Positions 762 through 63,684 are shown, counted from the first letter of the stretch. The stretch is 64,000 nt of DNA from a bacterium (GCA_043803945.1 JAZDJN010000054.1:108945-172944), one strand, 5' to 3'. Translations and numbers: made by a program. Notes: generated by a model from the sequence alone, not told the origin.

Positions 762-845
762 AGAAACAGTGTGGTTTCAGAGTGGTTTGTATTAGTATCT
801 CAAGTTACGCAAAACAAAAAATGAGACTCTTTGAAAGAAAACCTG

Positions 846-990
846 GCCGCCAAGTGCGCCAAGAGCTTTATTGTTTCAATGTTTTTATAAGGATCTGAAT
901 CTATCACATTTTAATCTTGGCGTTTTGCCTGCCTGCTGCAGGCAGGGCGTTCTTGCCCGCCTGTGCGCCGCTTGCGGCGGGCAGGGCGGC
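846..990. repeat. Inverted-repeat element (GCCGCCAAG-type arms) carrying two CCTG-hairpin inserts (928-946, 956-985)
   Basis: Removing both inserts restores the right arm (15/18 match to the reverse complement of the left arm). Confidence 0.8.
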
Positions 991-1038
991 AAATCTTTCT
1001 CGTTTCCTGGTCTTACTCAGTTCCATGCGTAACATAAG

Positions 1039-1317
1039 TTAGTATTCAATTTGTGTATGAAGAGCAATCTCTTCAAGAACCGATGAAACTTTCAGGCATT
1101 CATCCATTGGCCCGTCAAAGATGACTGCTTTTCCATTCCTGTGTACTTCCCATGTTAAGGCTTCTGCGGTCGGTGAATCGCAGCGGATGGCTTTCATGAT
1201 CTGATGAATCACCTCTTCAAAGGTGTGTATTTCGTCATTATAGAGCAGGACCTTAGCCGGTTCCTGAGTGAGAACATTACTCTCTTTTTCCTGCTCAAAT
1301 TGTGTTTGTTGATCCAT
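1039..1317 (-). CDS. clpS: ATP-dependent Clp protease adaptor ClpS
   Basis: KVLLYNDEIHTFEEV and EVHRNGKAV motifs, 92 aa. Confidence 0.9.
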   Translation of the reverse strand: MDQQTQFEQEKESNVLTQEPAKVLLYNDEIHTFEEVIHQIMKAIRCDSPTAEALTWEVHRNGKAVIFDGPMDECLKVSSVLEEIALHTQIEY

Positions 1318-1348
1318 AAGTCGAGGTAATCCGAATTATAGTTACTAA

Positions 1349-1507
1349 GCCACGAAGGCACAAAGACACGAAGAGAAAACAAAATGGAGTTTACAAATAT
1401 CTCGATGTGTCGATCGGGAAATAATGGAAAAACAATCTCCAAAATAATTCGTGCCTTTCCTGCCCGCATAAAGTGGTCCCAGATGGCAGGCGGGGAGACT
1501 CGGTGGC
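1349..1507. repeat. Inverted-repeat element (GCCACGAAG/CACAAAG arms) with a 36-bp CCTG-hairpin insert at 1459-1494
   Basis: Removing the insert restores a 19/25 inverted match to the left arm at 1349-1373. Confidence 0.8.
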
Positions 1508-1664
1508 AAAATCATTTTGCTAAAACTTTTTCCTTTTCCATATTAAAAATACTAAAAAAACGACTGCCTTTCAACAAACGAGTTAAGAGAACTGGCCCAG
1601 AAGGGGAGAGAGTGCATCGTAAAGGAAGGGCCGCAATGAATACAGGAGTTTCGAATATAAAAGA

Positions 1665-1692
1665 AAAGGCATCTCTTCGTCGAGATGCCTTT
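1665..1692 (-). terminator. Rho-independent terminator after icd
   Basis: AAAGGCATCTC-ttcgtc-GAGATGCCTTT stem with a U-tract on the minus strand. Confidence 0.8.
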
Positions 1693-1713
1693 AAAATTGT
1701 GAATAGAATACGA

Positions 1714-2961
1714 TCACATTTGCGCGATGATAGCGTCGCCGAACTCAGAACACTTTACCTCTTTTGCACCCTCCATTAATCGTGCGAGGTCGTAGGTGAC
1801 AGTCTTTGCCTGGATTGCTTTTTCCAATCCCTTGAGGATAAGGTCAGCCGATTCTGTCCAACCCATATAGCGCAGCATCATCTCTCCCGAGAGAATAACG
1901 GAACCGGGATTCACTTTATCCAGGTTCGCATATTTAGGAGCAGTTCCGTGAGTGGCTTCAAAGACAGCATAGCCGTTTTCGTAGTTGATATTGCCGCCGG
2001 GGGCAATGCCAATTCCCCCAACCTGTGCGGCAAGGGCATCGGAGATATAGTCGCCGTTCAAATTGAGTGTGGCGATCACATCATATTCGGCAGGGCGGGT
2101 CAGGATCTGCTGCAGGAACGCATCTGCAATTACATCTTTTATGACCATTCCATTCGGTAATCTTACCCAGGGGCCGTCATCGATGAGCGTTCCGCCGAAT
2201 TCTTTCTGAGCAAGTTCATATCCCCAATCCCGAAATCCTCCTTCTGTGAACTTCATGATATTTCCCTTGTGCACGAGCGTCACAGACTTCCGATTGTTGT
2301 CGAGTGCGTACTGGATTGCAGCGCGGACAAGTCGTTTTGTTCCTTCGATCGAAACCGGTTTAATCCCGATGCTGGATGATTCCGGAAATCGTATCTTCTT
2401 TACATTCATCTCGCTTTGAAGCCATGCAATCACTTTTTGTGCTTCCGGTGTTCCTGCTTTCCATTCTATGCCGGCATAAATGTCTTCTGTGTTTTCACGG
2501 AAGATAACCATATTAACCAGCTCTGGTTTCTTCACGGGAGAGGGGACCCCGGGGAAATATTGAACGGGTCGCAAACAGACGTAAAGATCAAGCATTTGCC
2601 GGAGTGTGACGTTAATGGAGCGGATTCCCCCGCCAACTGGCGTCGTCAACGGTCCTTTAATCGCGACGACATGATCTTTGATTGCATGTAGAGTATCATC
2701 ATGCAGCCAGGTATTGGGTCCATAAACCACATTTGCTTTTTCTCCTGCATACACTTCGAACCAGACGATCTTTCTTTTTCCATCATAGGTCTTGGCCACA
2801 GCAGCATCCATAACACGCTGAGATGCCCGCCAAATGTCGGGACCAGTCCCATCACCTTCAATAAATGGTATGATCGGGTTGTCCGGTACCAGAAGCTTTC
2901 CGTTTTGAGAGGTGATTCTCGTTCCTTCAGATGGAGGAGTTATTTTGATATATGTGCTCAT
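1714..2961 (-). CDS. icd: Isocitrate dehydrogenase (NADP), E. coli-type
   Basis: [53 protein letters not shown]. Confidence 0.97.
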
Positions 2962-3410
2962 GGAGTTTCTTCCTCAATAAATGTTATGGAACCTCGCTTA
3001 AGTTGCTCACGAATCAGATTGCCGTAATAGGTAAGTTCTTCATCTGAATATTGCTTCAGCGTTGTCGTCAGAGTGATATTATCTCCCGGGTAACGAGGAG
3101 TAATATGGATATGAAAATGAAATACAGATTGTCCTGCGATATGTCCATTATTTGAAAAGAAATTGAATCCTTCCAGCTTCAGGCCTATCATCAGAGCTTT
3201 GCTGATCTGTTGCGTTGCCTGCAGCACACTGTTCACCGTCTCGATTGGGAGATCCAGAAATGTTGAATAATGCACTTTAGGAATGACGAGAGTATGCCCG
3301 AGGTGGATTGGATTGATATCGAGGATGGCAATCACCAGCGCATCTTCATAAATCAGTTCGGCTGAGTTTTTACCTGCGATGATTTGACAAAAAACGCAAT
3401 CACTCCACAT
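2958..3410 (-). CDS. HIT family hydrolase
   Basis: CVFC N-terminus and histidine triad HFHIH; overlaps the icd start. Confidence 0.93.
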
Positions 3411-3521
3411 ATTTTCAATAGTTCTCTCTTCTGAGAAATCCCTTCATTAACTGGCTGAATCTTACCGAAAAATGGTTCGAAAGTCAAAAGTACGAGGATG
3501 GTTTTTCAAAGGAATTTTATC

Positions 3522-3710
3522 TAATTGGTTCTCGCTGAAAAAAGATAGCCACCAAGGCACGAAGTCACTAGGAAAATCATATAATTCAAAAAAAACTTAT
3601 CTTTCTTTGTGCCTTAGAGACTTTTCAACCAGAGGCTGATGCGCCCGCCTGAACGACGTAGTCGGGCAGGCCTATGGTGCAGTGGCAATTATTTCATCGA
3701 GAACTAATTA
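3522..3710. mobile_element. MITE-like shell with three further nested palindromic elements
   Basis: TIR TAATTGGTTCTCGCTGAAA / TTTCATCGAGAACTAATTA (17/19); inner IR 3548-3686; insert 3624-3680; innermost insert 3644-3670. Confidence 0.7.
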
Positions 3711-3733
3711 AGGAAAAAGGAAGAATGAGGCTC

Positions 3734-3762
3734 TTGAATCTCTCGGAGTGATTTGGTATATT
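3734..3762 (+). promoter_or_regulatory. Sigma70-type promoter
   Basis: TTGAAT-N17-TATATT upstream of the TPR lipoprotein gene. Confidence 0.55.
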
Positions 3763-3817
3763 TTTCCGCATTCTGGAGGTAGTCAGACATATACAATTAC
3801 GTTAAAAAGGATTTGAT

Positions 3818-5389
3818 ATGAAGAACTATTCATTCGGTTTTATCATCATAAGTATCCTTGCCGTTGTACTATTCCAAGGATTTCAATGTGGTTCACCGGA
3901 ATTCACCGGTGCAAAAGTCTATATGCAGCAAAAGAATTTTATTGAAGCAAAACGGTTACTCGAGATTGAGGTGAAGAAGAACCCTCAGAATACCGAGGCT
4001 TGGTACTTTCTCGGTGGTATTTACGCTGAAGAGGGCAACTATGATGGAATGAATGAAGCATTCAATGAAGTCCTCAAAGCAGGTTCAGTTCATGCGGCAG
4101 ATATCCGGACTATCCGATATGCAAAATGGGGCCAGCATCTTAATGCGGGTGTGGCATTTCTGGAGCGTGCCACGGCTGATTCGGCAGCCTATTTTGAGAA
4201 GTCCATCAAAGAGTTTATTAATGCCAGCCGCGCATGGCCGGATACCGGTTTAACCTACAAGTACATTGCGTATGGTTATAATAACAAGGGCGATTTTGAT
4301 AATGCCATTGTCAATTTCCGAAAAGCCTGGGAAATGGGGAAGGACGTAGAATCGATTAAAAGGATCGGACGCATTTACGCAACCCGCGGCCAGCAGCACA
4401 GGGAGAAATTCGATATTGAAAATGAACCAAAACTGAAATCTATCCGGGATTACGCGGAAGCGAAGAGATCCACCAGCAAGAGTGAAATTGTAAAATGGCT
4501 GGGCAATCCCCGAATCGAAAAGGAAAAACCGGTAAAGGGGAAGAAGCCGCCTACGAAAGAAGAATGGTTTTTTGATACCTACAAATATAAAATCGTCGTT
4601 GATGGAGATAAAATACTCGAGAAGCAGGAGCTCGGTACATTTGCCCCAACGATTGATTCAATAGAAATAAAACTTGCCGTAGTGGAATTTGAGAAAGCAG
4701 TGTCCGCTCTTGACTTGGCTCTGAAGGCAGATCCTAAAGACAATGAAAGTATAACGCTTTTAATGTCGTCCTATGTTGGAACAGGGAGAATCAAAGATGC
4801 GGTTAAAACATTTGAACTCGCCGTTGCCAATGACCAAAAGAATAAGATGAACCATTACCTTCTTGGAGTTCTCTATCGGGAGGATGGACAGATTGAAAAG
4901 GCGATTGAACAGTTAAAGGAGATGTTAAAGATTGATGAGAATGATGTTGAGGGATTGTACGAACTTGGTGCCACCTACTACAACTGGGGATATGACATCT
5001 ATAAAACCGAACAGGCAAAGGGCGGTGAACTAAGCGGTGTTCATAAGGAAAAATTCAAGCTGGCATTGCCGTACCTGAAAAAAGTGAGTGAACATGAAAG
5101 CCGAAAAAATGATCCGACAATTTTCGAAACCCTCGGCCAAATTTATGCGCAACTGAGTGAACAGGAAAAGGCAATGAAGATGTTTGAGTACGCTGATTGG
5201 CTCAAGAAAAATCCATTGAAAATAGGTCTCTCAGAGGCTGATATTAAGAACCTCTGGGGAGAGCCAGATCAAAAGAATGAGACGGTTTACGAGAATTTAA
5301 AATCTGTTCAGTGGACATATGGGAAGCAAGGGGCACTTCTTTATTTTACCGATGGTAAATTAAAAAGTTGGACTCGAGTCACAAAGTAA
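3818..5389 (+). CDS. TPR-repeat lipoprotein with SmpA/BamE-like segments
   Basis: Signal peptide ending in GFQC; many TPR-like helices; KSEIVKWLGNP and GLSEADIKNLWGEPD...QWTY segments. Confidence 0.75.
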   Translation: MKNYSFGFIIISILAVVLFQGFQCGSPEFTGAKVYMQQKNFIEAKRLLEIEVKKNPQNTEAWYFLGGIYAEEGNYDGMNEAFNEVLKAGSVHAADIRTIRYAKWGQHLNAGVAFLERATADSAAYFEKSIKEFINASRAWPDTGLTYKYIAYGYNNKGDFDNAIVNFRKAWEMGKDVESIKRIGRIYATRGQQHREKFDIENEPKLKSIRDYAEAKRSTSKSEIVKWLGNPRIEKEKPVKGKKPPTKEEWFFDTYKYKIVVDGDKILEKQELGTFAPTIDSIEIKLAVVEFEKAVSALDLALKADPKDNESITLLMSSYVGTGRIKDAVKTFELAVANDQKNKMNHYLLGVLYREDGQIEKAIEQLKEMLKIDENDVEGLYELGATYYNWGYDIYKTEQAKGGELSGVHKEKFKLALPYLKKVSEHESRKNDPTIFETLGQIYAQLSEQEKAMKMFEYADWLKKNPLKIGLSEADIKNLWGEPDQKNETVYENLKSVQWTYGKQGALLYFTDGKLKSWTRVTK

Positions 5390-5422
5390 GTTTATAATTA
5401 TTATTCCAAGTGCTAGTCGAAT

Positions 5423-5455
5423 AAACGCCCATCAAATAACTATCGATGGGCGTTT
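5423..5455 (+). terminator. Stem-loop, probable terminator
   Basis: AAACGCCCATC...GATGGGCGTTT, 11-bp inverted repeat. Confidence 0.55.
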
Positions 5456-5480
5456 GCATCAGAACAGAGGAGATCAGAAG

Positions 5481-5807
5481 ATGAGTGAACCAGTGCAGCA
5501 ACAACAGATCAATATTGAGTTGGGAGAAAAAGAGGCGGAAGGAATTTATTCCAATCTTGCCATCATTACCCATTCTCCTGCAGAGTTTGTCATAGATTTT
5601 ACACGTGTCTTACCAGGAGTGCCAAAGGCTAAAGTCCATGCCCGCATTGTCATGACTCCGCAGCATACAAAGATGTTCCTCAATGCGATAGCTGATAATA
5701 TCGAGAAGTATGAATCGAAGTTTGGTGAAATAAAGATTCTCGGCGAAGCACCGGGTGGAGGTATTTTTGGATTCCAGCCTCCGGGGAAAGAGGAAAAATT
5801 TCATTAA
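5481..5807 (+). CDS. DUF3467 domain protein
   Basis: [21 protein letters not shown]...[10 protein letters not shown]; SD GAGGAG before ATG 5481. Confidence 0.88.
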
Positions 5808-7189
5808 AGAATATACCTGCTTAAATCCCGATCACGGACAATCGAACTCAATCTCTCCTGAACAAGATCCTTTGTTATACAGATTTGGCTCGACTTGATG
5901 GAATCGGGAGCATCAAACAGCAACTCCTCGAGTAGTGTTGTAATGATCGTGTGTAATCTTCTCGCACCAATATTTTCTACTTGTTCATTCACCTGATACG
6001 CAGTCCTGGCAATTTCGCGAACGGCTTCCGGCTCAAACTCCAGACTGATCCCTTCAGTCTCAAGCAGCGCAGCATATTGCTTCAGCAGGGCATTGTGAGG
6101 GAGTGTAAGTATTTTTACAAAATCTTCTTCGGTGAGGCTTTGAAGCTCAACACGAATGGGAAATCGCCCTTGCAGCTCAGGTATGAGATCGGAAGGCTTC
6201 GCGACATGAAATGCTCCTGAAGCGATGAACAGAATGTGGTCGGTCTTGACCATCCCATATTTTGTGGTAACACTTGATCCTTCTACGATGGGAAGGAGGT
6301 CGCGCTGAACTCCCTCGCGAGAGACATCGGGCCCTATGGATTGTCCCCGTGAACCTGTAATTTTGTCAATTTCGTCAATGAAGACGATACCGGAGTTCTC
6401 CACACGTGAGAGAGCCTCCTTCACCGCCTTTTCCATATCGATAAGCTTTTGGGCCTCCTCTTGTGCAAAGATCAGCCGGGCTTCAGCGACAGAAATTTTT
6501 CGATGCTTATTCTTTTTAGGTAGGATATTCCCAAACATCTCCTGGATGTTGATTCCCATATCGTCCAGTGTCATCGGTCCCATTACCTGCATCAACGGAA
6601 GCTGCGAGGTAGCAATCTCAACCTCAATAACGCGTCCATCGAGTGATCCTGAACGGAGCTTTTCTTTGAACCGTTGACGGGTTCGATCTTGCTCTTCCTC
6701 TGGTGTCAATCCTTCTCCTGCCGGTTCGGCCGTACGGTTTTTTCGTTGAGAGGGAACCAGAATATCAAGAATGCGTTCTTCAGCGAGCACTTCAGCCTTC
6801 TGCTGCACCTCTGCTGTTTTTTCAGCTTTCACCATACTGACCGCGATTTCGGTAAGGTCTCTGATCATCGATTCCACATCACGGCCAACGTATCCTACTT
6901 CCGTAAATTTCGAAGCTTCTACTTTTAGAAACGGTGCGTGGGCAAGCCGTGCCAGCCGGCGAGCGATCTCTGTTTTGCCAACACCGGTCGGTCCGATCAG
7001 AATGATGTTGTTCGGCATGATCTCTTCACGAAGCTGCTCGGAGACCTGCAGCCGCCGCCATCGATTCCGGAGAGCGATTGCCACGGATTTCTTGGCATTG
7101 TTCTGGCCTATGATATATTTGTCCAGTTCCGAGACGATCTCGCGGGGAGTTAATTCATTGTGCTGAGGTTGTTTGGATTTTGTTGTCAA
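5804..7189 (-). CDS. hslU: ATP-dependent protease ATPase subunit HslU
   Basis: [43 protein letters not shown]; likely TTG start at 7189. Confidence 0.96.
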
Positions 7190-7193
7190 GGAT

Positions 7194-7749
7194 TCACAGT
7201 TCTTCAATGGTGATTGACGTGTTTGTATAGATACAGATTTTTGCTGCAGTTTCCAATCCTTCCTGTACAATCTCGCGGGCATCCAATGGGGTATGCTTGA
7301 CCAACATGCGTGCAGCCGCCAGAGCGTAGCTTCCTCCTGAACCTACCGCGACGATACCATCGTCAGGTTCAATGACGTCGCCGGTCCCCCGAGATGATCA
7401 ATGCATGGTCTTTGTCAAGGACGGCCAGGAGAGCTTCAAGCTGGCGAAGATACTTGTCGGTGCGCCAGAGCTTGGCCAGTTCTACAGCCGCTCGAACAAT
7501 CTGTCCCTGATGTTGTTCTAATTTCTCTTCAAACCTGTCGAGCAAACTGAACGCATCCGCAGTTGCTCCTGCAAAGCCGACGAGTACGGAGTTATTATAA
7601 ATTTTCCGAATCTTGTTGGCTTTCTGCTTCATGATAGTGTTGCCCAATGTTACCTGACCATCGCCGCCGAGGGCTACGTTACCGTTATGCCGAACACCGA
7701 GAATGGTTGTTGCATGGATGGTGTGTGTTAAACAGGGTTCGTTGTTCAT
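7194..7749 (-). pseudogene. hslV: HslV protease subunit with a +1 frameshift in a G run near 7386-7390 (probably an assembly error)
   Basis: HATTILG...LIISG, then in another frame [21 protein letters not shown]...[14 protein letters not shown]; removing one G gives an intact 184-aa HslV. Confidence 0.9.
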
Positions 7750-7750
7750 A

Positions 7751-9202
7751 TCAAATTTTTTTCCTCATTCGGGCGATTGGAATTCCAAGTTGTTCGCGGT
7801 ATTTTGCTGCCGTCCGGCGAGCGATTTTAACACCCTCGGTACCGATCATGGCAGCAATTTTATCGTCGTTCAATGGTTTTTTAGGATCCTCTGTCGAGAT
7901 AATTTCTTTAATTCGCTGTTTAATGGTGAAGTTGGATACATCCTCGCCGGAATCGGATTCGAGCCCCGAGCTGAAGAAATATTTTAGCGAGTGGACACCG
8001 AATTCAGTCTGAACATATTTACTATTCACCACCCGGCTGATGGTGGAAATGTCGACTCCAACGGTCTCCGCAATATCTTTATAAATCATCGGCTTCAAAG
8101 TTTCACCCTCTTCGAACCAAAGCCGCTGCCGCTGAACAATTGAGCGCATAACTTTGAGCAATGTTTCTCTCCGCTGATGGATGGAGGCGATGAACCATTT
8201 GGCCGATTCGAATTTTTGTTTTACAAATTCTTTCGCCTCTTTTGAAGTTTTCTTGCTCTTCGGGGCTACTAAATCGCGGTACGCTTTATTAATCCGCAAC
8301 GTCGGCATGAAGCGATCGTTGAGGGTAATGATGAATGAGCCCTCATCATTTTCTACAAGGAAATCCGGAGTGACATAATTCTCCTGAGCGGAGAATTCGC
8401 CTTCACCCGGTTTTGGATTGAGGTGTTGAATGATTTCGATGACTTTCTTCAGGGTTTCGCGACCAATCCGCAGATTATGTGCAAGAGCGTCATAGCGCTT
8501 CAGTTTCAAATCATGGAAGTACACTCCCAGAATTTTCAATGACAATTCCTTGATGGAAGCCTCGAGGGTCATCGATTTGATTTGTGCGATGAGACACTCC
8601 TGGAGCGAGCGGGCGGCAATACCTGAGGGTTCGAGTAACTGAATTTTATGAAGGACATGTTCGGCCTTTTCTTCCTGAATCTCAAGACCAAAGCTGAGGT
8701 TAAGGTCCTGGACAATCAAACCCAAGTCGCGACGAAGATAGCCATCCTCATCGACATTTCCGAGAATTTCCTCTGCGAGGAGAATATCAACGTCGTCGAT
8801 ATTCTGCAGCCGAAATTGTGCGAGCAGACGTTCCGAGAGCGGTGTCGATGATTGCAATGGGCGTTCGTACTCTTCATCCTCGTTCTGATTGAGATACGAT
8901 TCGGGACTCTTATATCCTGCAAGGTCATCGTTCAGATAGTCTTCAATAGTGTACGGCTCTTCCTTCTCTGCCTTTTCTGCGGCGGCCCGTTCATCTTCTG
9001 CGGTCTGAGATTCCTTCTCTGGTTCCTCCTGGTCCAAGGTCAATTCCATTTCTTCGGCGACTTCGAGTAACGGATTTATTTCGAGTTCGGTTTTAATCCG
9101 TTGCTCAAGGGAGAGATTCGGCAACTGGAGTAATTTAAGATATTGGACCTGCTGCGGTGTGAGCCTAAGGCCCAATTTCATTTGTTGCGATAGGTTAATC
9201 AT
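7751..9202 (-). CDS. rpoN: RNA polymerase sigma-54 factor
   Basis: Q/L-rich region [11 protein letters not shown], RpoN box [10 protein letters not shown]. Confidence 0.97.
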
Positions 9203-9213
9203 AGACGGCAGCG

Positions 9214-9816
9214 CTATTCACGATCTGTCTGTGTTAGTGATTTTTCTGTTTCACAAAATTTGAGGATTTGATTGTAGCGTTCTTCTCCGAATGCCCTGAT
9301 CAGCGATAGTTTCAGAAACTGGATGAGTTCTATCTGCCCCTCATGACCCCGCTTGAGTGCAGGCTCACATTCTGCAATTGCCTCATACCGAAGGTGTTGC
9401 TCATAGCCGCCATCAATCCGAATGGGGAAGAGGTGGCACGAAAGCGGTTTGATCCAATCTGATTCCTTCTTCAGATAAGCTTTTTCGAATGAGCATTTCG
9501 CAATCCCATCTTCATAGTAGACAAAGACACAGGCCGTATTTCGAAAGACCTGGGTTGTAAAATCGCCCGGAACACCTTGAAAGATCCCATGACTCTGAAT
9601 ATAGTCGCGATGGTCAGGGGCAATATATCGTTGTGCGATCGGGGCATATCGTTGAATGAGGGGGATCTCTTTCTCTGACAGCGGCGCACCCCTCGGCCCT
9701 GGCATTGTGCAGCATCCCCCTTTGCACACCTTTAGATCACAGGCAAATTTGATAAAAGGAATATCCCCGCCGATGTGAGATTCAAAATCGTTCACGAGCA
9801 ACAATTCCCGTACCAA
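9214..9816 (-). CDS. DUF3109 family Cys-rich (Fe-S/Zn) protein
   Basis: FACDLKVCKGGCC...GAPL, KPLSCHLFPIR; start uncertain. Confidence 0.85.
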   Translation of the reverse strand: MVRELLLVNDFESHIGGDIPFIKFACDLKVCKGGCCTMPGPRGAPLSEKEIPLIQRYAPIAQRYIAPDHRDYIQSHGIFQGVPGDFTTQVFRNTACVFVYYEDGIAKCSFEKAYLKKESDWIKPLSCHLFPIRIDGGYEQHLRYEAIAECEPALKRGHEGQIELIQFLKLSLIRAFGEERYNQILKFCETEKSLTQTDRE

Positions 9817-9941
9817 AACACTATAAGTTCAGAGAATTCAATAGTAGTATAGTTAAAAATCTCCAAAAAACAATAGGTTTCAAGTGGCACATATCCTTTG
9901 TGGCTTGGATGTTGACGCGTTTTTTTCACAAGTTGCTGCCA

Positions 9942-9968
9942 CAACCATTTTCCTGATAGAAGGTCTAA
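9942..9968 (+). promoter_or_regulatory. Putative ECF-type promoter
   Basis: CAACC-N16-GTCTAA, also found before the second ECF gene. Confidence 0.6.
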
Positions 9969-9972
9969 TGAT

Positions 9973-10623
9973 ATGTTGACAAGAGAACATGAACACGGGA
10001 GTGAGAGTATGCAGGACATCGCTCTGATTCAAAAGGCGAAGGCTGGAGACCTCATTGCGTTTGAGCAATTGATCTATCGCTATGACAAGCAGGTACTCTC
10101 CCTGACCGCCCGTTATGTTCAGAGCGCAGAGGATGCTAAGGATATTTATCAGGAGGTTTTTCTGAGGGTCTTTCGCTCACTGCCAAAATTTCAATTCCGG
10201 AGTGAATTCTCAACGTGGCTCTTTCGCATAACAACCAATGTTTGTCTGACCCATCGTTCGCGAAAGAAACGGCATCCCCACACGTCGCTGAGTGACGAGT
10301 CCGATGAAGAGCATGGTGCTCTCAGTCTCAATACTCTTAGGAGCGATGAGCACACCGATGAGTCGCTGGAGAGGACAGAAATCTCCTTGCGAGTGAGAGA
10401 AGCGGTTGATCGATTATCAGCGAAACAGCGACTGGTCTTTATGATGAAGTACTTCGAAGGATATAAAATTCGTGAAATAGCGGTAATGATGAACTGTCAG
10501 GAAGGTACAGTTAAGAAGTACTTGTTTACGGCAATTCGAAAATTACGAAATGAGCTTCATGATCTCTATGAGCACAAGAGCGGTTCCGAATTGAAGGAAG
10601 TGAAGATGGAAGGATTGGTATAA
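9973..10623 (+). CDS. ECF sigma factor (sigma-70 family); alternative start 10009
   Basis: DAKDIYQEVF, FSTWLFRI, GTVKKYLF in regions 2 and 4. Confidence 0.93.
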   Translation: MLTREHEHGSESMQDIALIQKAKAGDLIAFEQLIYRYDKQVLSLTARYVQSAEDAKDIYQEVFLRVFRSLPKFQFRSEFSTWLFRITTNVCLTHRSRKKRHPHTSLSDESDEEHGALSLNTLRSDEHTDESLERTEISLRVREAVDRLSAKQRLVFMMKYFEGYKIREIAVMMNCQEGTVKKYLFTAIRKLRNELHDLYEHKSGSELKEVKMEGLV

Positions 10624-11588
10624 TGAAACATGATGACTACAAAAACCTTCTTTATCTGCATTGCTGGGATGAGGCAGATGATGATCAAAAAGGCATTCTG
10701 AAAAAGCATCTCCTCACCTGCAAGGAATGCCGCATTGAGTTGTCTGAAATCGATGGGATGAAGCATATCCTGCAGGATCAAAGCTCGATCGAAGTGACCG
10801 ATGATATGCTCGCAGAGGCACGCCGTGAGCTTCGCGTTGCACTTCGACTGGAGAAGAATAAACGTCGATCATTCCAGGAACTACTGGAATACCTCTCCAT
10901 ATTTTTCGAGCGCCCGATTCCCATTGCCATCGGCGGAGTAAGCTTGGTGCTGACCGGCCTGCTCGTTGGGTACTTTGCATTTCAACCTTCTGAACCAGGA
11001 AGTGATTTCCGATTGACAGGAATAACACAAGCGAATACTCCTGAGAGTGAGGAGCCGCAAATCACAAATTTCCGCCTCACAACTCAGGATCAGTTCTCCG
11101 GCCAGGTTGAAATAGAGTTTGATCTTATAACACCCGTCAAAATGCGCGGCACAGCGGATGATCCCGCAATTCAGAAAGTGCTGGCTCAGACACTTCTTGA
11201 TGAACAAAATCCGGGCGCTCGGTTACGCACAGTCACAGCATTAGCCTCTCAGATGGAAAAAACCAAGCGGCTCGATACAGAGACAAAGTCAGCTTTGATT
11301 TTCAGCCTGAAGGCCGATCCCAATGATGGGGTTCGTAAGGAAGCGCTGCGAACACTGCTGCAATTTCCGATGGACAAAGAGATTAAACAGGCACTTACCT
11401 ATGTTTTGCAGAAAGATATCAATCCCGCTATGCGCATTGAGGCTATTAACAGTCTCGGGAAGTTGATGACGGAGTCGAATTCACAGGATACCGATATCCT
11501 GAATGTCTTAAAAGAAAAAATGGAACGTGATAATAATAATTACATTCGCATTCGTGCGAGCAACCTCTTAAAGGAGATACAACAATGA
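10623..11588 (+). CDS. Membrane anti-sigma factor: zf-HC2, one TM helix, extracytoplasmic HEAT-like repeats
   Basis: HLLTCKEC (HxxxCxxC); TM AIGGVSLVLTGLLVGYFAF; NPGARLR, NDGVRKEAL, NPAMRIEAI repeats. Confidence 0.82.
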   Translation: MKHDDYKNLLYLHCWDEADDDQKGILKKHLLTCKECRIELSEIDGMKHILQDQSSIEVTDDMLAEARRELRVALRLEKNKRRSFQELLEYLSIFFERPIPIAIGGVSLVLTGLLVGYFAFQPSEPGSDFRLTGITQANTPESEEPQITNFRLTTQDQFSGQVEIEFDLITPVKMRGTADDPAIQKVLAQTLLDEQNPGARLRTVTALASQMEKTKRLDTETKSALIFSLKADPNDGVRKEALRTLLQFPMDKEIKQALTYVLQKDINPAMRIEAINSLGKLMTESNSQDTDILNVLKEKMERDNNNYIRIRASNLLKEIQQ

Positions 11589-12790
11589 AACGGTACCTAT
11601 TGGTTACATTCGTGATCCTTGGCTTGATGGCCGCGTCTCTCTCTGCAGCAACGCGTGATGGAGAGAGTGAACGATCAAAATCTTTCGCCGTCACCAAAGG
11701 CGGAAAGCTCATTGTAAAAGTCTATGGTGGTGAGTTGAAAATTACGAGCTGGGAAAAGAATGAAGTGTTCGCAAAGGTGACCAAGCTCGATGAGAAGGAT
11801 AGCGAACAGCTTGTTATGGAACAGGATGGCAATACGGTACGAATCGAATTGAAGAATAAATCTTCACGTTCGAGGCGGCAATCACCGGAATTTGCAATCA
11901 GTATTCCGTCTCAATTCGATGCCCAGTTGTCTACGGGTGGCGGCGGCATTAGTGTGCAAGGGAAAATTAAAGGTTCGGTAACCGGCACCACAGGTGGAGG
12001 AAGTATCACCCTAGAAGATGCCGTGGAAGGAGAATTGAATCTTACGACTGGGGGTGGTGAGATTAGGGCAAAAAATGTTGCTGGCAATACAACACTGACA
12101 ACCGGAGGCGGAGAAATTTCTATCGGAAGTATTGAGGGGAAGGTTACAGTAACAACTGGCGGCGGCTCGGTAACCCTCGATAAGGTATTGGGTGAATTGA
12201 CAGTAACAACCGGTGGCGGAAATATCGTCGTTGAGAGTGTTACAAAATCCCTGAAAGCGACCACCGGTGGCGGCGAGATTTACATTAAGAATGCCGGGGG
12301 AGACATCAAAGCCTCATCGGGTGGCGGCGAAATGAAAATCGGCAAAGTCACAGGAAATGCAACGATGAGCACTGGGGGTGGGGCTATAAGCCTGGATGGT
12401 GCCACCGGTAAGGTTTCCTTAACAACGGGTGGGGGCGAATTGGATATCCGCAATGTAACCGGTTCAGTCAAAGCGACCACCGGTGGAGGCGATATCGTAG
12501 CAGAATTGAGGCCCACGGGGCAGGGGGGTAGTAAACTAACCTCTGGTGGCGGAGATATTACACTCTATGTTCCGGAAGACGCCAGGGTTACGATCATTGC
12601 CGTCATTAAGGTTGAGGACAAGGATGATTTCAAAAAGTATAAAATAATGTCAGAATTTAAGCATGATAAGTATGAATCTAACGATCGCGATGAGGAAATA
12701 CGGGCTGTTTATACGCTGAATGGCGGGGGAGAAGAAATTACACTTACCACTTCAGAATCCGACATCACGATAAAAAAGCTTAAGAAATAG
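11585..12790 (+). CDS. Exported DUF4097-like beta-solenoid protein
   Basis: Signal peptide; 12 (T/S)(T/S)GGG repeats at about 18-19 aa spacing. Confidence 0.8.
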   Translation: MKRYLLVTFVILGLMAASLSAATRDGESERSKSFAVTKGGKLIVKVYGGELKITSWEKNEVFAKVTKLDEKDSEQLVMEQDGNTVRIELKNKSSRSRRQSPEFAISIPSQFDAQLSTGGGGISVQGKIKGSVTGTTGGGSITLEDAVEGELNLTTGGGEIRAKNVAGNTTLTTGGGEISIGSIEGKVTVTTGGGSVTLDKVLGELTVTTGGGNIVVESVTKSLKATTGGGEIYIKNAGGDIKASSGGGEMKIGKVTGNATMSTGGGAISLDGATGKVSLTTGGGELDIRNVTGSVKATTGGGDIVAELRPTGQGGSKLTSGGGDITLYVPEDARVTIIAVIKVEDKDDFKKYKIMSEFKHDKYESNDRDEEIRAVYTLNGGGEEITLTTSESDITIKKLKK

Positions 12791-12811
12791 CTCATATTAA
12801 AGTTTGCTCAC

Positions 12812-12846
12812 AAGCCCCTTGACCTAGATTGGTGAGGGGCTTTTTC
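12812..12846 (+). terminator. Rho-independent terminator
   Basis: AAGCCCCT...AGGGGCTTTTT. Confidence 0.8.
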
Positions 12847-12942
12847 TATATCCTCCCAAGAAACCTATCTTTGGAAAACCAACCCAGGTTTATTGAATTT
12901 CCTCCGTTATGTTCATAACCTTAGAATAATTCCTTGCCTTGT

Positions 12943-12970
12943 CAACCGATGGTCTGACGATGGCGTCTAA
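12943..12970 (+). promoter_or_regulatory. Putative ECF-type promoter
   Basis: CAACC-N17-GTCTAA (-10 CGTCTA). Confidence 0.6.
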
Positions 12971-13001
12971 ACAATGTAAGCTCAAGCAGAAGGAACTCTT
13001 G

Positions 13002-13553
13002 ATGGCTGAATCCCTGGAGCGCCAACTTGTCTGCCAGGTTAAAGAGGGAAGTCAGGAAGCATTTCGTGAACTTGTTCAAATGAAGATGAAGCAAGCATAC
13101 GATTTGGCGTACAGCTTTGTGAACGATCATGACGATGCGGAAGATATCACACAGGAATCATTTGTCAAAGCATATCAATCCATGGCGAATTTTCGCGAGG
13201 ACGCTGAATTCGGAACCTGGCTCTATCGGATTGTTACAAATACCGCTCTCGATCGATTGAAACAGAAAAAACGCAAGAAGAATCGAACTCTTTCACTGGA
13301 CGATTCGGAGGTGAAGACGATGGCAATATCACATGTCAACCAGGATGAGATGGACCTCAGTATTCATATTGAACGGGCACTCCATGAACTTCCCACACTA
13401 CAGCGTGCTGTGGTGATTCTGCGCCACTATGATGGCCTTTCAACACGGGATGTGAGCAAAATTCTTCAATGCTCGGAAGGGACTGTGAAAACCCATCTTC
13501 ATCGTGGTTTGAAGAAGATGAGAAGCACTTTGAATTTTCTGGTGGAGGCTTAG
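13002..13553 (+). CDS. Second ECF sigma factor
   Basis: DAEDITQESF, FGTWLYRI, GTVKTHLHRG; SD AAGGA. Confidence 0.93.
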   Translation: MAESLERQLVCQVKEGSQEAFRELVQMKMKQAYDLAYSFVNDHDDAEDITQESFVKAYQSMANFREDAEFGTWLYRIVTNTALDRLKQKKRKKNRTLSLDDSEVKTMAISHVNQDEMDLSIHIERALHELPTLQRAVVILRHYDGLSTRDVSKILQCSEGTVKTHLHRGLKKMRSTLNFLVEA

Positions 13554-13555
13554 CA

Positions 13556-14353
13556 ATGAGACATCGAACGGTACAAAATTTACTCTACGACTATCTTAAC
13601 GACGAATTATCTGCACCCGAAGCAGCTCAGGTTCGCGATCATTTAGCACGATGCAATAAATGCTTTGGTGAACAACAAATCATCAAGGAAAGCATACGCC
13701 TGTTGCAGCCGAAGCAGGTGAAGCCGAGTGAGAGTTTGTCTGAAACATACTGGCACAACTTTGCTGTCGAAATTCTGCATCAGGTTCAGTCTGGCGCAAA
13801 AAAAGAGAACGCGCTAAAGTTATGGTGGGAATCGAACCGATACTGGTTTCTCTCTCGCAAATCATATTCGCTTTCAATCGCCGGTGGACTTGCGTTGGTA
13901 ATCCTGGCAGTGTTTCTCTGGCCGCTCACCCGATCTGTTGATCCCGAAGTTGGAAATTCAATCAGACTAGTGTCAGAATCTCCAGATGAGCAGGTGAATC
14001 AGGAATTATCGGACTACTTCCATAAATCGAAAATACTCCTGGTAGGCATCTCGAACATCCGATCGGAGGATGTAGGGAACATTGATCTTTCCGTTGAACG
14101 CGATGCTGCAAGAAACCTGGTGAGGCAGGCTCGTACCTTCGATCATAAAGAGGTCGATGCCCGCTCTCGAATGCTCATTAAGGCTATGGAGAAGATCCTC
14201 ATTGAATTGGCAAATATGGAAGAGCGGGACGGGCTTTCTGACGTCGAGCTCATTCGTACAGGAATTCGGGAAGAGAACATGCTCTTCAAGATCAGAATGG
14301 CAGAAACAGCGGCCGGCGCACGGCAAGAGAATTCAGATAAGAATAATAATTAA
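13556..14353 (+). CDS. zf-HC2 membrane anti-sigma factor
   Basis: HLARCNKC; TM IAGGLALVILAVFLW; SD GGAGG. Confidence 0.82.
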   Translation: MRHRTVQNLLYDYLNDELSAPEAAQVRDHLARCNKCFGEQQIIKESIRLLQPKQVKPSESLSETYWHNFAVEILHQVQSGAKKENALKLWWESNRYWFLSRKSYSLSIAGGLALVILAVFLWPLTRSVDPEVGNSIRLVSESPDEQVNQELSDYFHKSKILLVGISNIRSEDVGNIDLSVERDAARNLVRQARTFDHKEVDARSRMLIKAMEKILIELANMEERDGLSDVELIRTGIREENMLFKIRMAETAAGARQENSDKNNN

Positions 14354-14366
14354 TTGGAGAAACGTC

Positions 14367-16382
14367 ATGAATCAATTACGAACTTCTATCCTCACCTCTG
14401 TGGTAATGATGTGCTGCTCAATTGCAGTATCACAGGAGCAACATGCATCTGCAACTGTGCAGGAGCACAACATTTCTGCGGCGACTGCACAGACAGCGTC
14501 AGGGCTTTTGTACCAGAGCGAGGCAGCCAGTGAGATCAACCTGCGTGAGCGTGAGGAACAGGATGACCCATCGTATACACAGTATAAGGCTGGCTACAAG
14601 TGTATTCTCGATGAACAATTCGAGAAAGCACGACAACTATTTTCCGAGATGATAAAAAAATATCCGAAGAGCAAGCATCTCGATAAAGCAGAGTATTGGT
14701 CAGCGTATTCCTGGAAAAACAGTGACAGAAAGAAAGCATCGAGTGCCTTCAAAGCGTTTATCAAAAAATATCCCTCGAGCAGCTATTTTGATGATGCCAT
14801 TGCAGAACTCACCAATCTCCAGGGCGGTGAAAAAAATCTTGGTGGATCAATGGGGATAGCCTATCCCACTGGAAGTTATTCCCTGAGTGCGGAGCGATAC
14901 TATCTTGAGGCACAGGAAGCAAAAGCTCGATCGCTCTTCCAATCCCAATATCAAGTGGTTCAAAAGTATAACATGGATCAGAATGCCAAGGAGTTAGTTC
15001 AACGCTACAAGTCGCAGGTGAGTGCAGCAGCCGGATTATCGTATAGCACCAGTGCAGAAGTAAAAAAGGAAGATCCGAAACTCAGAATGAAACGGGAAGC
15101 TCTCCAGGCTCTTGTTCGTTCCAATAAAGATGAGAAGACATTCGAAGTCGTCAAAGCGATGGTGTTCGATAGCACTCAGCCTGAAAGCATACGCGAAACA
15201 GCACTCCAGGCTCTCACGCAATTCAATAAGAAGGAGCTGACAGAAATCTATTTGCAATTCATGAAGAGCGATGCCCCAAACAAATTGAAACAACGCGCAC
15301 TATATGCAATGGCTTCGTCGGGAAAGGATAATGAAAAAGTATTCCAGATGATCAAGCAGGTGGCCCTTGATACCAAGGAGGATGAAGAGATGCGGCAGGC
15401 AGCGCTCCATGCTCTTCAATTTGTGAGTGATTCTGCAGCGGTGGGTCTCTATACCCAGATAGCCAATCAAGATGCTGATAAGAAAATTCGCTCATCAGCG
15501 GTCTATAAACTCGGCTCCATGCATCGCTCAGATGATCCACGGATCTTTGAAGCGATCAAAGAGTTTGCATTGAATCAACAAGCCGAACCAGAGGTGCGTG
15601 AAGCGGCACTCTACTCCCTCAGACAATTTGAAAAGAAGAAGGTCCTCGATACCTTCCTCAAGATAGCGAAAACTGATCCGGATATAAAAATCAGAGTCAT
15701 TGCAATCAGGAATTTGATGGGGAGTTCAGAGGATCCTCAAGCGGCAAGCTTCCTCAAAGAAGTTATCCTCAATAAAGAGAGCGATTACCAGGAAAAAGAA
15801 GCTGCACTCTATTCCATTGAAACAACGAAAGAGGGCGGACATGAACAGCTCTATGCCGAAATCTTAAAGAGTTCATCGGACGAACGATTCCGAGAAATGG
15901 CCTTACATTTACTGGTCAGAGCGAATAAAGATAATCCCTCTAAAAATCTCCAGATTCTGCGCGAAATAATTTTGGATCTATCGAAACCTAATCGTCTCCG
16001 CGAGGGTGCACTTGCAAGTCTCGCCTCATTGCGCAATGATGCCGCTCTCAGCTTATTGCTCGAAGTCGCAAAATCGGAAAAGGATGAGCGAATTAAGACG
16101 GCTGCAATTTACCAGATCGCCAATAGCAGCAAGAACAAAGCTAAATCGTTGGAGACATTAATTTCTCTCTTCGATTCTCTCGACAAGAAATCGTCTCAAG
16201 TTGCCCCCAGCCTCCTCTATGCGATCGCATCAATTGGAACGGAGCAAGCCGTTGACTTCCTCGCAAAGGTTGCAAAAACCCATGAGAACATGGATCTGCG
16301 TCAACAGGCTGTTGCGTTCCTAGGAAACATTGGTGGTGAGAAAGCCAGAAATGTTCTCCTCGATATTCTGAAGGAGAAGTGA
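14367..16382 (+). CDS. Exported protein with an N-terminal BamD/YfiO-like TPR and many HEAT repeats
   Basis: Signal peptide; KKYPKSKHLDKAEYW; repeated R-E/Q-x-AL motifs; SD GGAG before ATG 14367. Confidence 0.8.
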   Translation: MNQLRTSILTSVVMMCCSIAVSQEQHASATVQEHNISAATAQTASGLLYQSEAASEINLREREEQDDPSYTQYKAGYKCILDEQFEKARQLFSEMIKKYPKSKHLDKAEYWSAYSWKNSDRKKASSAFKAFIKKYPSSSYFDDAIAELTNLQGGEKNLGGSMGIAYPTGSYSLSAERYYLEAQEAKARSLFQSQYQVVQKYNMDQNAKELVQRYKSQVSAAAGLSYSTSAEVKKEDPKLRMKREALQALVRSNKDEKTFEVVKAMVFDSTQPESIRETALQALTQFNKKELTEIYLQFMKSDAPNKLKQRALYAMASSGKDNEKVFQMIKQVALDTKEDEEMRQAALHALQFVSDSAAVGLYTQIANQDADKKIRSSAVYKLGSMHRSDDPRIFEAIKEFALNQQAEPEVREAALYSLRQFEKKKVLDTFLKIAKTDPDIKIRVIAIRNLMGSSEDPQAASFLKEVILNKESDYQEKEAALYSIETTKEGGHEQLYAEILKSSSDERFREMALHLLVRANKDNPSKNLQILREIILDLSKPNRLREGALASLASLRNDAALSLLLEVAKSEKDERIKTAAIYQIANSSKNKAKSLETLISLFDSLDKKSSQVAPSLLYAIASIGTEQAVDFLAKVAKTHENMDLRQQAVAFLGNIGGEKARNVLLDILKEK

Positions 16383-16414
16383 TTCTCACACAAGAGTTGT
16401 GATCACTGATCCAC

Positions 16415-16444
16415 AAAGCCCCGGGAAGTTCTTCCGGGGCTTTT
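16415..16444 (+). terminator. Rho-independent terminator (possibly bidirectional)
   Basis: AAAGCCCCGG...CCGGGGCTTTT. Confidence 0.85.
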
Positions 16445-16479
16445 ATTCTTTATTGGGTCTAATACCCCGACGCTTGCGT

Positions 16480-16624
16480 CGTCATTCCGGCCCGCCTGCC
16501 GGCGAGGCAGGCGAAAGCTGGAATCTAGAAACTGGATGCCAGCCTGCCTGCCAACCTGTCCGCCGGAGCTTTGCGTAGGCGGAAGTGCCTGGCACGCAGG
16601 CAGGTAAAGACATTCGGGTGTGAC
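16480..16624. repeat. CGTC-type REP-like element with three CCTG-hairpin inserts (16491-16511; 16543-16604, itself containing 16555-16583)
   Basis: Removing the inserts gives CGTCATTCCGGC-GAAA-GCTGGAATC...CTGGATGCC...TCGGGTGTGAC. Confidence 0.8.
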
Positions 16625-16659
16625 AGTTATTTTCTTTTTGGATAACCGCATGTTTAGTT

Positions 16660-39631: not shown

Positions 39632-39673
39632 AGAGCCCCCCGGGAACTGCACAGTAATCCGGGGGCTCTTTCT
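39632..39673 (+). terminator. Rho-independent terminator
   Basis: AGAGCCCCC...GGGGGCTCTTTCT. Confidence 0.75.
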
Positions 39674-63610: not shown

Positions 63611-63684
63611 TAGCGGGGGAGGGATTTGAACCCACGACCTGCGGATTATGATTCCGACGCTCTAACCAACTGAGCTACCCCGCC
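63611..63684 (-). tRNA. tRNA with CAU anticodon, most likely elongator tRNA-Met
   Basis: GGCGGGG-TAGCTCAGTTGGTTAGAGC-...CGGA-ATCATAA-TCCG...GGTTCAAATCC-...CCCCGCT-A; CCA not encoded. Confidence 0.92.

Follow-up and report, generated by a model that had tools for sequence, protein, structure and literature searches.

The Locus and the Seven Hairpin Units

The stretch of DNA considered in the present work (the window, 64,000 nucleotides in length) corresponds to C54:108945-172944, a part of one contig of a 5.54-Mb draft genome (118 contigs, 46.5% G+C); in a protein comparison, the relatives of its ClpS all came from Ignavibacteriales, Ignavibacteria or "Bacteroidota" metagenome-assembled genomes. 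The window harbors seven copies of a short GC-rich hairpin unit, all of them intergenic and distributed over four spacers, that is, the alaS-clpS spacer (762-1038), which holds the copies 928-946 and 956-985, the clpS-icd spacer (1318-1713), the HIT-TPR spacer (3411-3817), and the HEAT-dprA spacer (16383-16659). The first of these is 277 nt long here, compared to about 0-8 nt in related genomes. According to the data reported below, the units probably represent a lineage-specific superfamily of miniature, non-autonomous hairpin elements of 19 to ~60 nt resembling repetitive extragenic palindromes (REPs).

A previous inspection of this DNA (hereafter, the sequence-only reading) had described the seven copies as an invariant CCTG "foot" followed by a hairpin, and had interpreted them as a mobile micro-element that targets DNA structure and inserts only into other palindromes. 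All seven stretches that it quoted are present at the coordinates given. To examine their borders, each unit was cut at these coordinates and the joined flanks were searched genome-wide for uninterrupted paralogues of the same length (empty paralogues). These were retrieved for five of the seven copies, whose borders were thus confirmed, whereas none was found for 1459-1494 and for 16543-16604.

The copy 928-946, for which no strand can be assigned, is a perfect palindrome of 19 nt (family F1, CCTGCCTGC-T-GCAGGCAGG) that represents the indel unit in its entirety; at maximal stem it reads CCTGCCTG-ctg-CAGGCAGG, so that the CCTG foot pairs with CAGG, and its empty paralogues amount to 3-6 matches (1 mismatch in 44 nt). 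The neighboring copy 956-985 (minus strand) is a 30-nt unit, CCTG-CCCGCC-14 nt-GGCGGG, with 1-2 empty matches; the TG of its foot pairs with a downstream CA, the maximal stem at 954-983 being TGCCCGCC/GGCGGGCA, with two of the four foot bases paired. The 36-nt unit at 1459-1494 (plus strand) consists of CCTGCC..GGCAGG overlapping CCCGC..GCGGG; the former gives the best fold (1459-1490), the latter a 5-bp alternative. The unit at 3644-3670 (minus strand, 27 nt, CCTG-CCCG..CGGG) has 4-bp stems only, lies in the loop region of a TGCGCC..GGTGCA hairpin belonging to a dispersed repeat, and has 15-16 empty matches.

The remaining three copies share the HEAT-dprA spacer. The 21-nt unit at 16491-16511 (minus strand), whose best fold is CGCCTGCC-ggcga-GGCAGGCG at 16493-16513, lies on the edge of the loop in its host hairpin (cattccgg..ctggaat), and a single empty match (2 mismatches in 44 nt) was found for it. 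The copy 16543-16604 (plus strand) is a 62-nt composite palindrome closed by CCTGCCTGC/GCAGGCAGG, with its CCTG foot paired with CAGG; versions of about 35 nt without the inner unit occur elsewhere, and sister copies have 11-13 empty matches. The inner unit, 16555-16583 (plus strand), is a 29-nt unpaired foot plus hairpin, CCTG-TCCGCC-13 nt-GGCGGA, with 2 empty matches (1 mismatch in 34 nt), and belongs to the TCCGCC family, which counts 46 copies in the genome.

The foot-plus-hairpin architecture is therefore clean only for 16555-16583; with the longest possible stems, four other copies have their foot paired in full or in part. Part of the "invariant foot" of the seven copies is due to the CCTGCC stem motif being counted twice. 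Since four of the seven owe their foot to this motif, one might suppose that the likeness among them is a chance one, arising among GC-rich, terminator-like hairpins; we consider this idea hardly credible, as it is refuted by the enrichment of the foot in the whole genome, by the controls, and by the exact empty paralogues (see below).

The two units of the alaS-clpS spacer are embedded in a dispersed host repeat of ~250 nt (785-1045, plus strand), which makes up most of that spacer and has paralogues on eight other contigs (C5, C21, C46, C58, C16, C42, C1, and C61). The alignment of nine paralogues revealed four independent module sites. The first one is occupied by a 36-nt CCTGCC..GGCAGGCGGG unit, of the same type as 1459-1494, in two copies and is without it in seven; the second one bears a 25-nt CCAG-CCCGCC hairpin in four complete copies. 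The 928-946 palindrome is present in three paralogues and cleanly absent from three, and the 956-985 unit is present in five and absent from one, a different 20-nt CCTG hairpin taking its place (site D) in one further copy. The repeat itself has inverted ends, tcacgttacgca .. tgcgtaacataag.

The Genome-Wide Family

The hexamer CCTGCCTGC and its complement occur at 217 sites on the two strands, 62% of which fall outside long open reading frames (ORFs), compared to 6-8% for control hexamers of similar composition. A census of the genome for perfect GC-rich hairpins (stem of at least 6 bp, loop of 3-45 nt) retrieved 4,523 of them. The tetranucleotide most often found 5' of their stems was CCTG (174 of ~9,000 feet), followed by CTTG and AAAA with 77 each; in the intergenic fraction CCTG preceded 114 of ~2,600 feet, and the next tetranucleotide 47.

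The 251 hairpins placed behind a CYTG foot comprise the stem classes CCTGCC (57), TCCGCC (50), CCCGCC (43), CCCCGA (13), and TCCCGA (7). NCCGCC hairpins, for their part, are preceded by CCTG in 71 cases, by CTTG in 31, and by CCAG in 14. This implies that the foot is not invariant, as had been supposed: CTTG accounts for 31 of the 102 CYTG units, and CCAG variants exist too. The covariation of the stems, on the other hand, was borne out. In the 102 CYTG-N-CCGCC..GGCGG-N units, which were collected without presupposing any pairing at the outer position, this position is paired in 91, as C..G in 52 and as T..A in 39, while C..A and T..G occur once each. Furthermore, the pattern CYTGTCCGCC-N(6-10)-GGCGGA (the 24-nt member of the family) has 26 matches in this genome and its reversed control a single one.

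From these data we would define the unit, with reasonable rather than full confidence, as a GC-rich hairpin with a YCCGCC, CCCCGA, TCCCGAC, or CCTGCC stem, usually directly preceded by CYTG. The CCTGCCTGC palindromes appear to differ in being bounded by CCTG..CAGG on both strands instead of carrying a single CYTG foot, a distinction that we favor without regarding it as firm.

Exact Modules and Their Nesting

The analysis of empty paralogues was extended to 244 non-redundant foot-plus-hairpin units, each of which was removed from the first base of the foot to the last base of the stem; 22 nt of each flank were joined and used in an ungapped search of the genome, a match being accepted as empty if it covered at least 11 nt on each side with no more than 4 mismatches. 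At least one empty paralogue was found for 90 of the 244 units, and for only 1-8 when the length removed was wrong by 1-4 nt. The best register was 0 or -1, with a one-base ambiguity being common and several units fitting perfectly only at register 0. This, in turn, implies that there is no target-site duplication, as the sequence-only reading had stated: no repeated flank is found. A 9-nt "duplication" seen beside some CCTGCCTGC palindromes was considered as a target-site duplication and rejected, because it is a tandem motif that pre-existed in the host.

Each class contributes to these figures, with empty paralogues for 31 of 57 CCTGCC, 22 of 46 TCCGCC, 24 of 42 CCCGCC, 4 of 6 TCCCGA, and 4 of 13 CCCCGA units. 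Palindromes of 19-20 nt of the form CCTGCCTGC-N(1-2)-GCAGGCAGG number 32 in the genome, and 19 of them have empty paralogues when the whole palindrome is removed.

The clustering of the flanks of the classes other than CCTGCC gave 74 distinct host contexts. The loop of one repeat, GGGAGC..GCTCCC, carries at least seven different inserts and is found in 11-15 empty copies. The units are thus gained or lost as exact blocks, with no target-site duplication and in many unrelated flanks. They also stack, both one within another and within hairpins that belong to different repeat families, among them the REPs flanking genes for REP-associated tyrosine transposases (RAYTs). For instance, a CCTGCCTGC palindrome is lodged in the loop of a 24-nt TCCGCC unit that lies, in its turn, in a dispersed repeat, and another one lies within the foot of a unit of the CCCGCC class. 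At C60:19300-19750 and C102:55700-56080, a 99-nt sequence is repeated in tandem; it comprises a TGCGCC hairpin, whose loop contains the 24-nt unit, and then a TCAGCC hairpin.

Target Sites

According to the sequence-only reading, the units insert only into palindromes. When the units are removed, a perfect host stem of at least 6 bp is restored in only 25 of 250 cases; in the controls, hairpins behind other feet gave 1.6%, random points in intergenic DNA 1.8%, and the removal of 4 nt on the wrong side 1 in 151. The share differs among the classes (TCCGCC, 12/50; CCCGCC, 8/42; CCTGCC, 0/57). DNA folding of 74 restored sites placed 26 of them in a predicted hairpin loop, 14 in an internal loop, and 17 in a stem, the other 17 falling outside the predicted structures. 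The hairpin-loop share (35%) compares with 24% expected from the other positions of the same sequences. In other genomes, 14 of 30 loci fall in a predicted hairpin loop (expected, 21%), and at 7 of the 30 the host forms a perfect stem of at least 6 bp. Hence, "only" was too strong. Likewise, it does not hold that each copy of the window lies inside another inverted repeat, since the hosts of 928-946 and 956-985 are direct repeats of the TTGGCG type, with insertion at TTG^GCG; several other sites are placed at the junction of two hairpins.

The absence of any shared target sequence, as claimed by the sequence-only reading, was not confirmed: the base at position -1 shows a weak preference, and TTG^GCG and GA^AG sites recur. 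In the TCCGCC family 31 of 38 hosts have an A here, and in the CCCCGA family all 12 hosts have a G. In 70 of 97 cases the unit ends with the same base that precedes it, compared to ~47% expected (arithmetic on site counts).

Distribution in the Ignavibacteria and the Possibility of a Functional Signal

The 24-nt pattern was retrieved from 70 of 151 genomes of the order, the present one having the most, and, elsewhere in the class, from 10 of 60 genomes belonging to other orders. Of 302 genomes from the remainder of the phylum, 9 have it, with one match each, which is no more than the reversed control gives. These data show that one 24-nt member has been kept, loop included, across the class Ignavibacteria. 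In 30 loci of five other genomes, the 24-nt unit has mutually unrelated hosts. Two genomes of a single genus (G069 and G133) seemed to have the unit next to a RAYT-like gene; this association was discarded, as the unit lies inside the loop of the REPs with which the RAYT-like gene is itself flanked.

The conservation of the loop as RTCTKTTT across the families of the order raises the question of whether the hairpins are selected functional signals, such as sites for protein binding on DNA or structures for RNA stability or termination, their "hosts" being in that case a part of one structured motif. The same question is raised by the stretch 3643-3673 (31 nt), which is 97-100% identical to several copies in other genera, where the genes are only ~75% identical; this similarity would point either to strong constraint or to recent exchange. 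A signal might also be the reason for the rarity of the units in divergent (promoter) spacers (7 of 85). This rarity, however, together with the absence of any preferred orientation relative to the flanking genes (14/13 and 19/17), fits elements acting at the DNA level and not RNA signals. Moreover, the features of rho-independent terminators are missing: the units are not oriented with genes, and no T-run follows their stems, unlike the terminator-like hairpins (A-run, stem, and T-run) found 3' of genes at 5423-5455, 12812-12842, 16415-16443, and 39632-39669, which are clearly different from the CYTG units. The sole Rfam match of the window at the gathering threshold is a tRNA gene (63611-63684, minus strand), and the hosts are found in many copies without any unit. 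On balance, a functional signal seems an improbable explanation of the units.

Mobility of the Units and the Search for a Mobilizing Enzyme

The units are probably mobile and REP-like. Of the structure-targeting mobile micro-element originally proposed, the precise modules and the unrelated flanks are retained, while "only palindromes" and the "invariant foot" were overstatements. The units would move as single-stranded hairpins on which an enzyme encoded at another locus acts in trans, cutting and rejoining them; their entry would be favored after a purine and where the target DNA is single-stranded (loops and hairpin feet), and repeated entry at such places would give rise to the nested palindromes.

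A number of results weigh against this reading, and they concern the target, the events, and the enzyme. As for the target, the preference for loops estimated by folding is only about 1.5- to 2-fold. As for the events, one dispersed repeat carries the 24-nt unit at the identical site in at least 12 copies, some of which share the same second-order insert; these copies probably represent one event copied along with the host, and many copies at one site of a repeated host imply that the copy number overstates the number of events. Furthermore, the search for precise empty sites in orthologous spacers, carried out on six loci of genome G072 and up to five sister genomes of its genus (g17, a genus other than that of the window, with genomes 91-95% identical), did not yield any clean filled/empty pair: one locus was filled in both genomes, two fell in larger indels, and three in repeat arrays. 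The larger indels correspond to a 1.2-kb IS200-like element and to a ~200-nt cluster of modules. The former (L111, G072:C1:356630-357856) is absent from two sister genomes and bears the 24-nt unit in the loop of a hairpin of its own, ~130 nt upstream of tnpA.

Alternatively, the units would be unable to move alone and composite palindromic repeats (hosts with their inner hairpins) would spread as a whole, with empty copies formed where an inner hairpin was lost precisely, as replication slippage across it might bring about. The units at 928-985, which travel inside the 250-nt repeat on eight other contigs, the copies of the 24-nt unit at one site of a dispersed repeat, and the g17 units contained in larger indels are all in keeping with this alternative. 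Such a loss does not account for the presence of the same 24-nt sequence in non-homologous flanks, both within the genome and across genera, nor for the different units of the GGGAGC..GCTCCC loop, and the junction repeats (1 nt at most) are too short for slippage. We therefore regard deletion from composite repeats as unlikely, albeit slightly less so than a functional signal, and prefer the gain of mobile units.

Concerning the enzyme, the genome has 12 matches to PF01797 (Y1), and a protein search finds more; by their motifs, most of these Y1 proteins resemble RAYT subclasses listed in a table of PMC6006769. The set of RAYT-like Y1 genes is unusually large, and each of the 12 ORFs has distinct flanking hairpin repeats of its own (on contigs such as C66, C62, C18, C16, C65, C73, C85, C56, C72, and C76), which indicates that several REP-RAYT systems, each with a distinct repeat family, coexist in one genome. 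The sequence-only reading had suggested looking for RAYT/TnpA-like genes flanked by the motif. None was found at 10 Y1 loci of this genome nor at 30 in five element-rich genomes, one incidental unit lying within 1.5 kb in each set. Only three ORFs are flanked by units on both sides, and they appear to encode a membrane protein, a protein resembling pectate lyases, and one resembling cytidylyltransferases; there is no transposase among them, as judged by reading their sequences with no family search run.

Two candidates were considered individually. The RAYT of contig C72 has CC[TA]G-CCCGCC hairpins nearby, but as a general enzyme it was rejected, its close relatives being present in 3 of 150 other genomes and in neither of the element-rich G072 and G140. 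The resident IS200-like element (C31) was rejected as a parent, its ends being unrelated to the units and without similarity to them. Across the 151 genomes, a PF01797 match is present in 64 of the 70 with the 24-nt pattern and in 55 of the 81 that lack it (Spearman 0.50, with no correction for kinship or genome size); the link between pattern and Y1 is a weak one, and G107 harbors eight copies with no Y1 match. Transposition of single strands, of the IS200/IS605 type, gives rise to an orientation bias relative to replication. The units show no orientation bias relative to the local GC skew (16/13 against 28/26, p = 0.82), although this is a weak test in a draft genome, and no gene-strand bias.

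The enzyme responsible might be a Y1/HUH protein similar to RAYT/TnpA, a kind with at least 12 representatives in the genome; this is a guess, and one that is more likely to be wrong than right. The HUH step is a guess because it derives from the architecture only and is not a result.

Comparison with Known Systems and Significance

In the literature, REPs are short, GC-rich extragenic hairpins (20-40 nt) present in many copies, with a tetranucleotide at the 5' foot, and they are defined by GT[AG]G or CGTC at this position (PMC6006769, PMC3733652). A tetranucleotide directly 5' of a hairpin is described in PMC6006769 for REPs and for the ends of IS200/IS605, which insert without target duplication; the architecture attributed to the units by the sequence-only reading is the same. 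Some REP families are reported to lie inside other palindromes (PMC3733652, section 7), so that this behavior is already in print, but no CCTG-tagged class was found among them and the string "CCTG" is absent from the main text of that paper. Literature searches, which covered open-access full text only, did not retrieve any description of the units in Ignavibacteria nor any CCTG-tagged REP.

The likeness to the REP-RAYT systems and to REPINs thus concerns size, extragenic location, the many copies, and the tetranucleotide at the foot of the hairpin. The differences are that the tag is CYTG and not GT[AG]G or CGTC, that no RAYT gene is flanked by the units, unlike in a REPtron, that the indel module is a single hairpin and not an inverted doublet, and that the units are found within the REPs of RAYT genes and do not themselves constitute these REPs. 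With the IS200/IS605 ends the units share the hairpin, the 5' tetranucleotide, and the lack of target duplication; however, a single hairpin takes the place of two distinct ends (left and right), only a weak purine preference at -1 was observed in place of a fixed target tetranucleotide, the units are unlike the ends of the resident C31 element, and they show no strand bias.

The small dispersed repeats (SDR) of Nostoc and its relatives, reportedly described by Elhai et al. in 2008, are said to measure 21-27 nt, to have been judged mobile, to be often nested in repeats or hairpins, and to have no known enzyme. They would be the nearest to the units in behavior; they belong to a different phylum and presumably are of unrelated sequence.

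If the units move, the lower bound for a transposable element would be set at about 24 nt, one hairpin, and one tetranucleotide; DNA secondary structure, rather than sequence, could be the preferred target; and the filling of the intergenic regions of some bacteria with nested palindromes would be accounted for. If they do lodge in the REPs of RAYT systems as mobile units, they would be parasites of parasites. The boldest form of the idea can be advanced only tentatively, as we hold it to be doubtful: the units would be the smallest known mobile DNA, spread over a whole class, with 24-nt, single-hairpin members bearing a 4-nt tag that transpose as single strands into hairpin loops and feet, including those of the REPs of RAYTs, by means of an enzyme that is unlinked and not of the known REP-associated kind. 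Such an enzyme, if found, would bring a new activity, the structure-guided insertion of single-strand DNA, into the known repertoire. The interest of the units rests on their extreme smallness, on their nesting in other mobile repeats, and on their class-wide conservation. In practice they are both a nuisance and a marker, in that they widen spacers (such as alaS-clpS), break assemblies, and seed spurious ORFs.

Additional Observations

Public read runs were uninformative on the units: only two of them, both in the form of contigs, contained 5-7% of the sampled words, and these gave fragments of relatives and a single joint (3570 to 3682), which was too weak to be used, having 26 letters on its shorter side. 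A 10-mer census revealed a set of overlapping, abundant 10-mers (120-175 counts each, both strands) that correspond to one repeat of ~30 nt resembling a CRISPR repeat.

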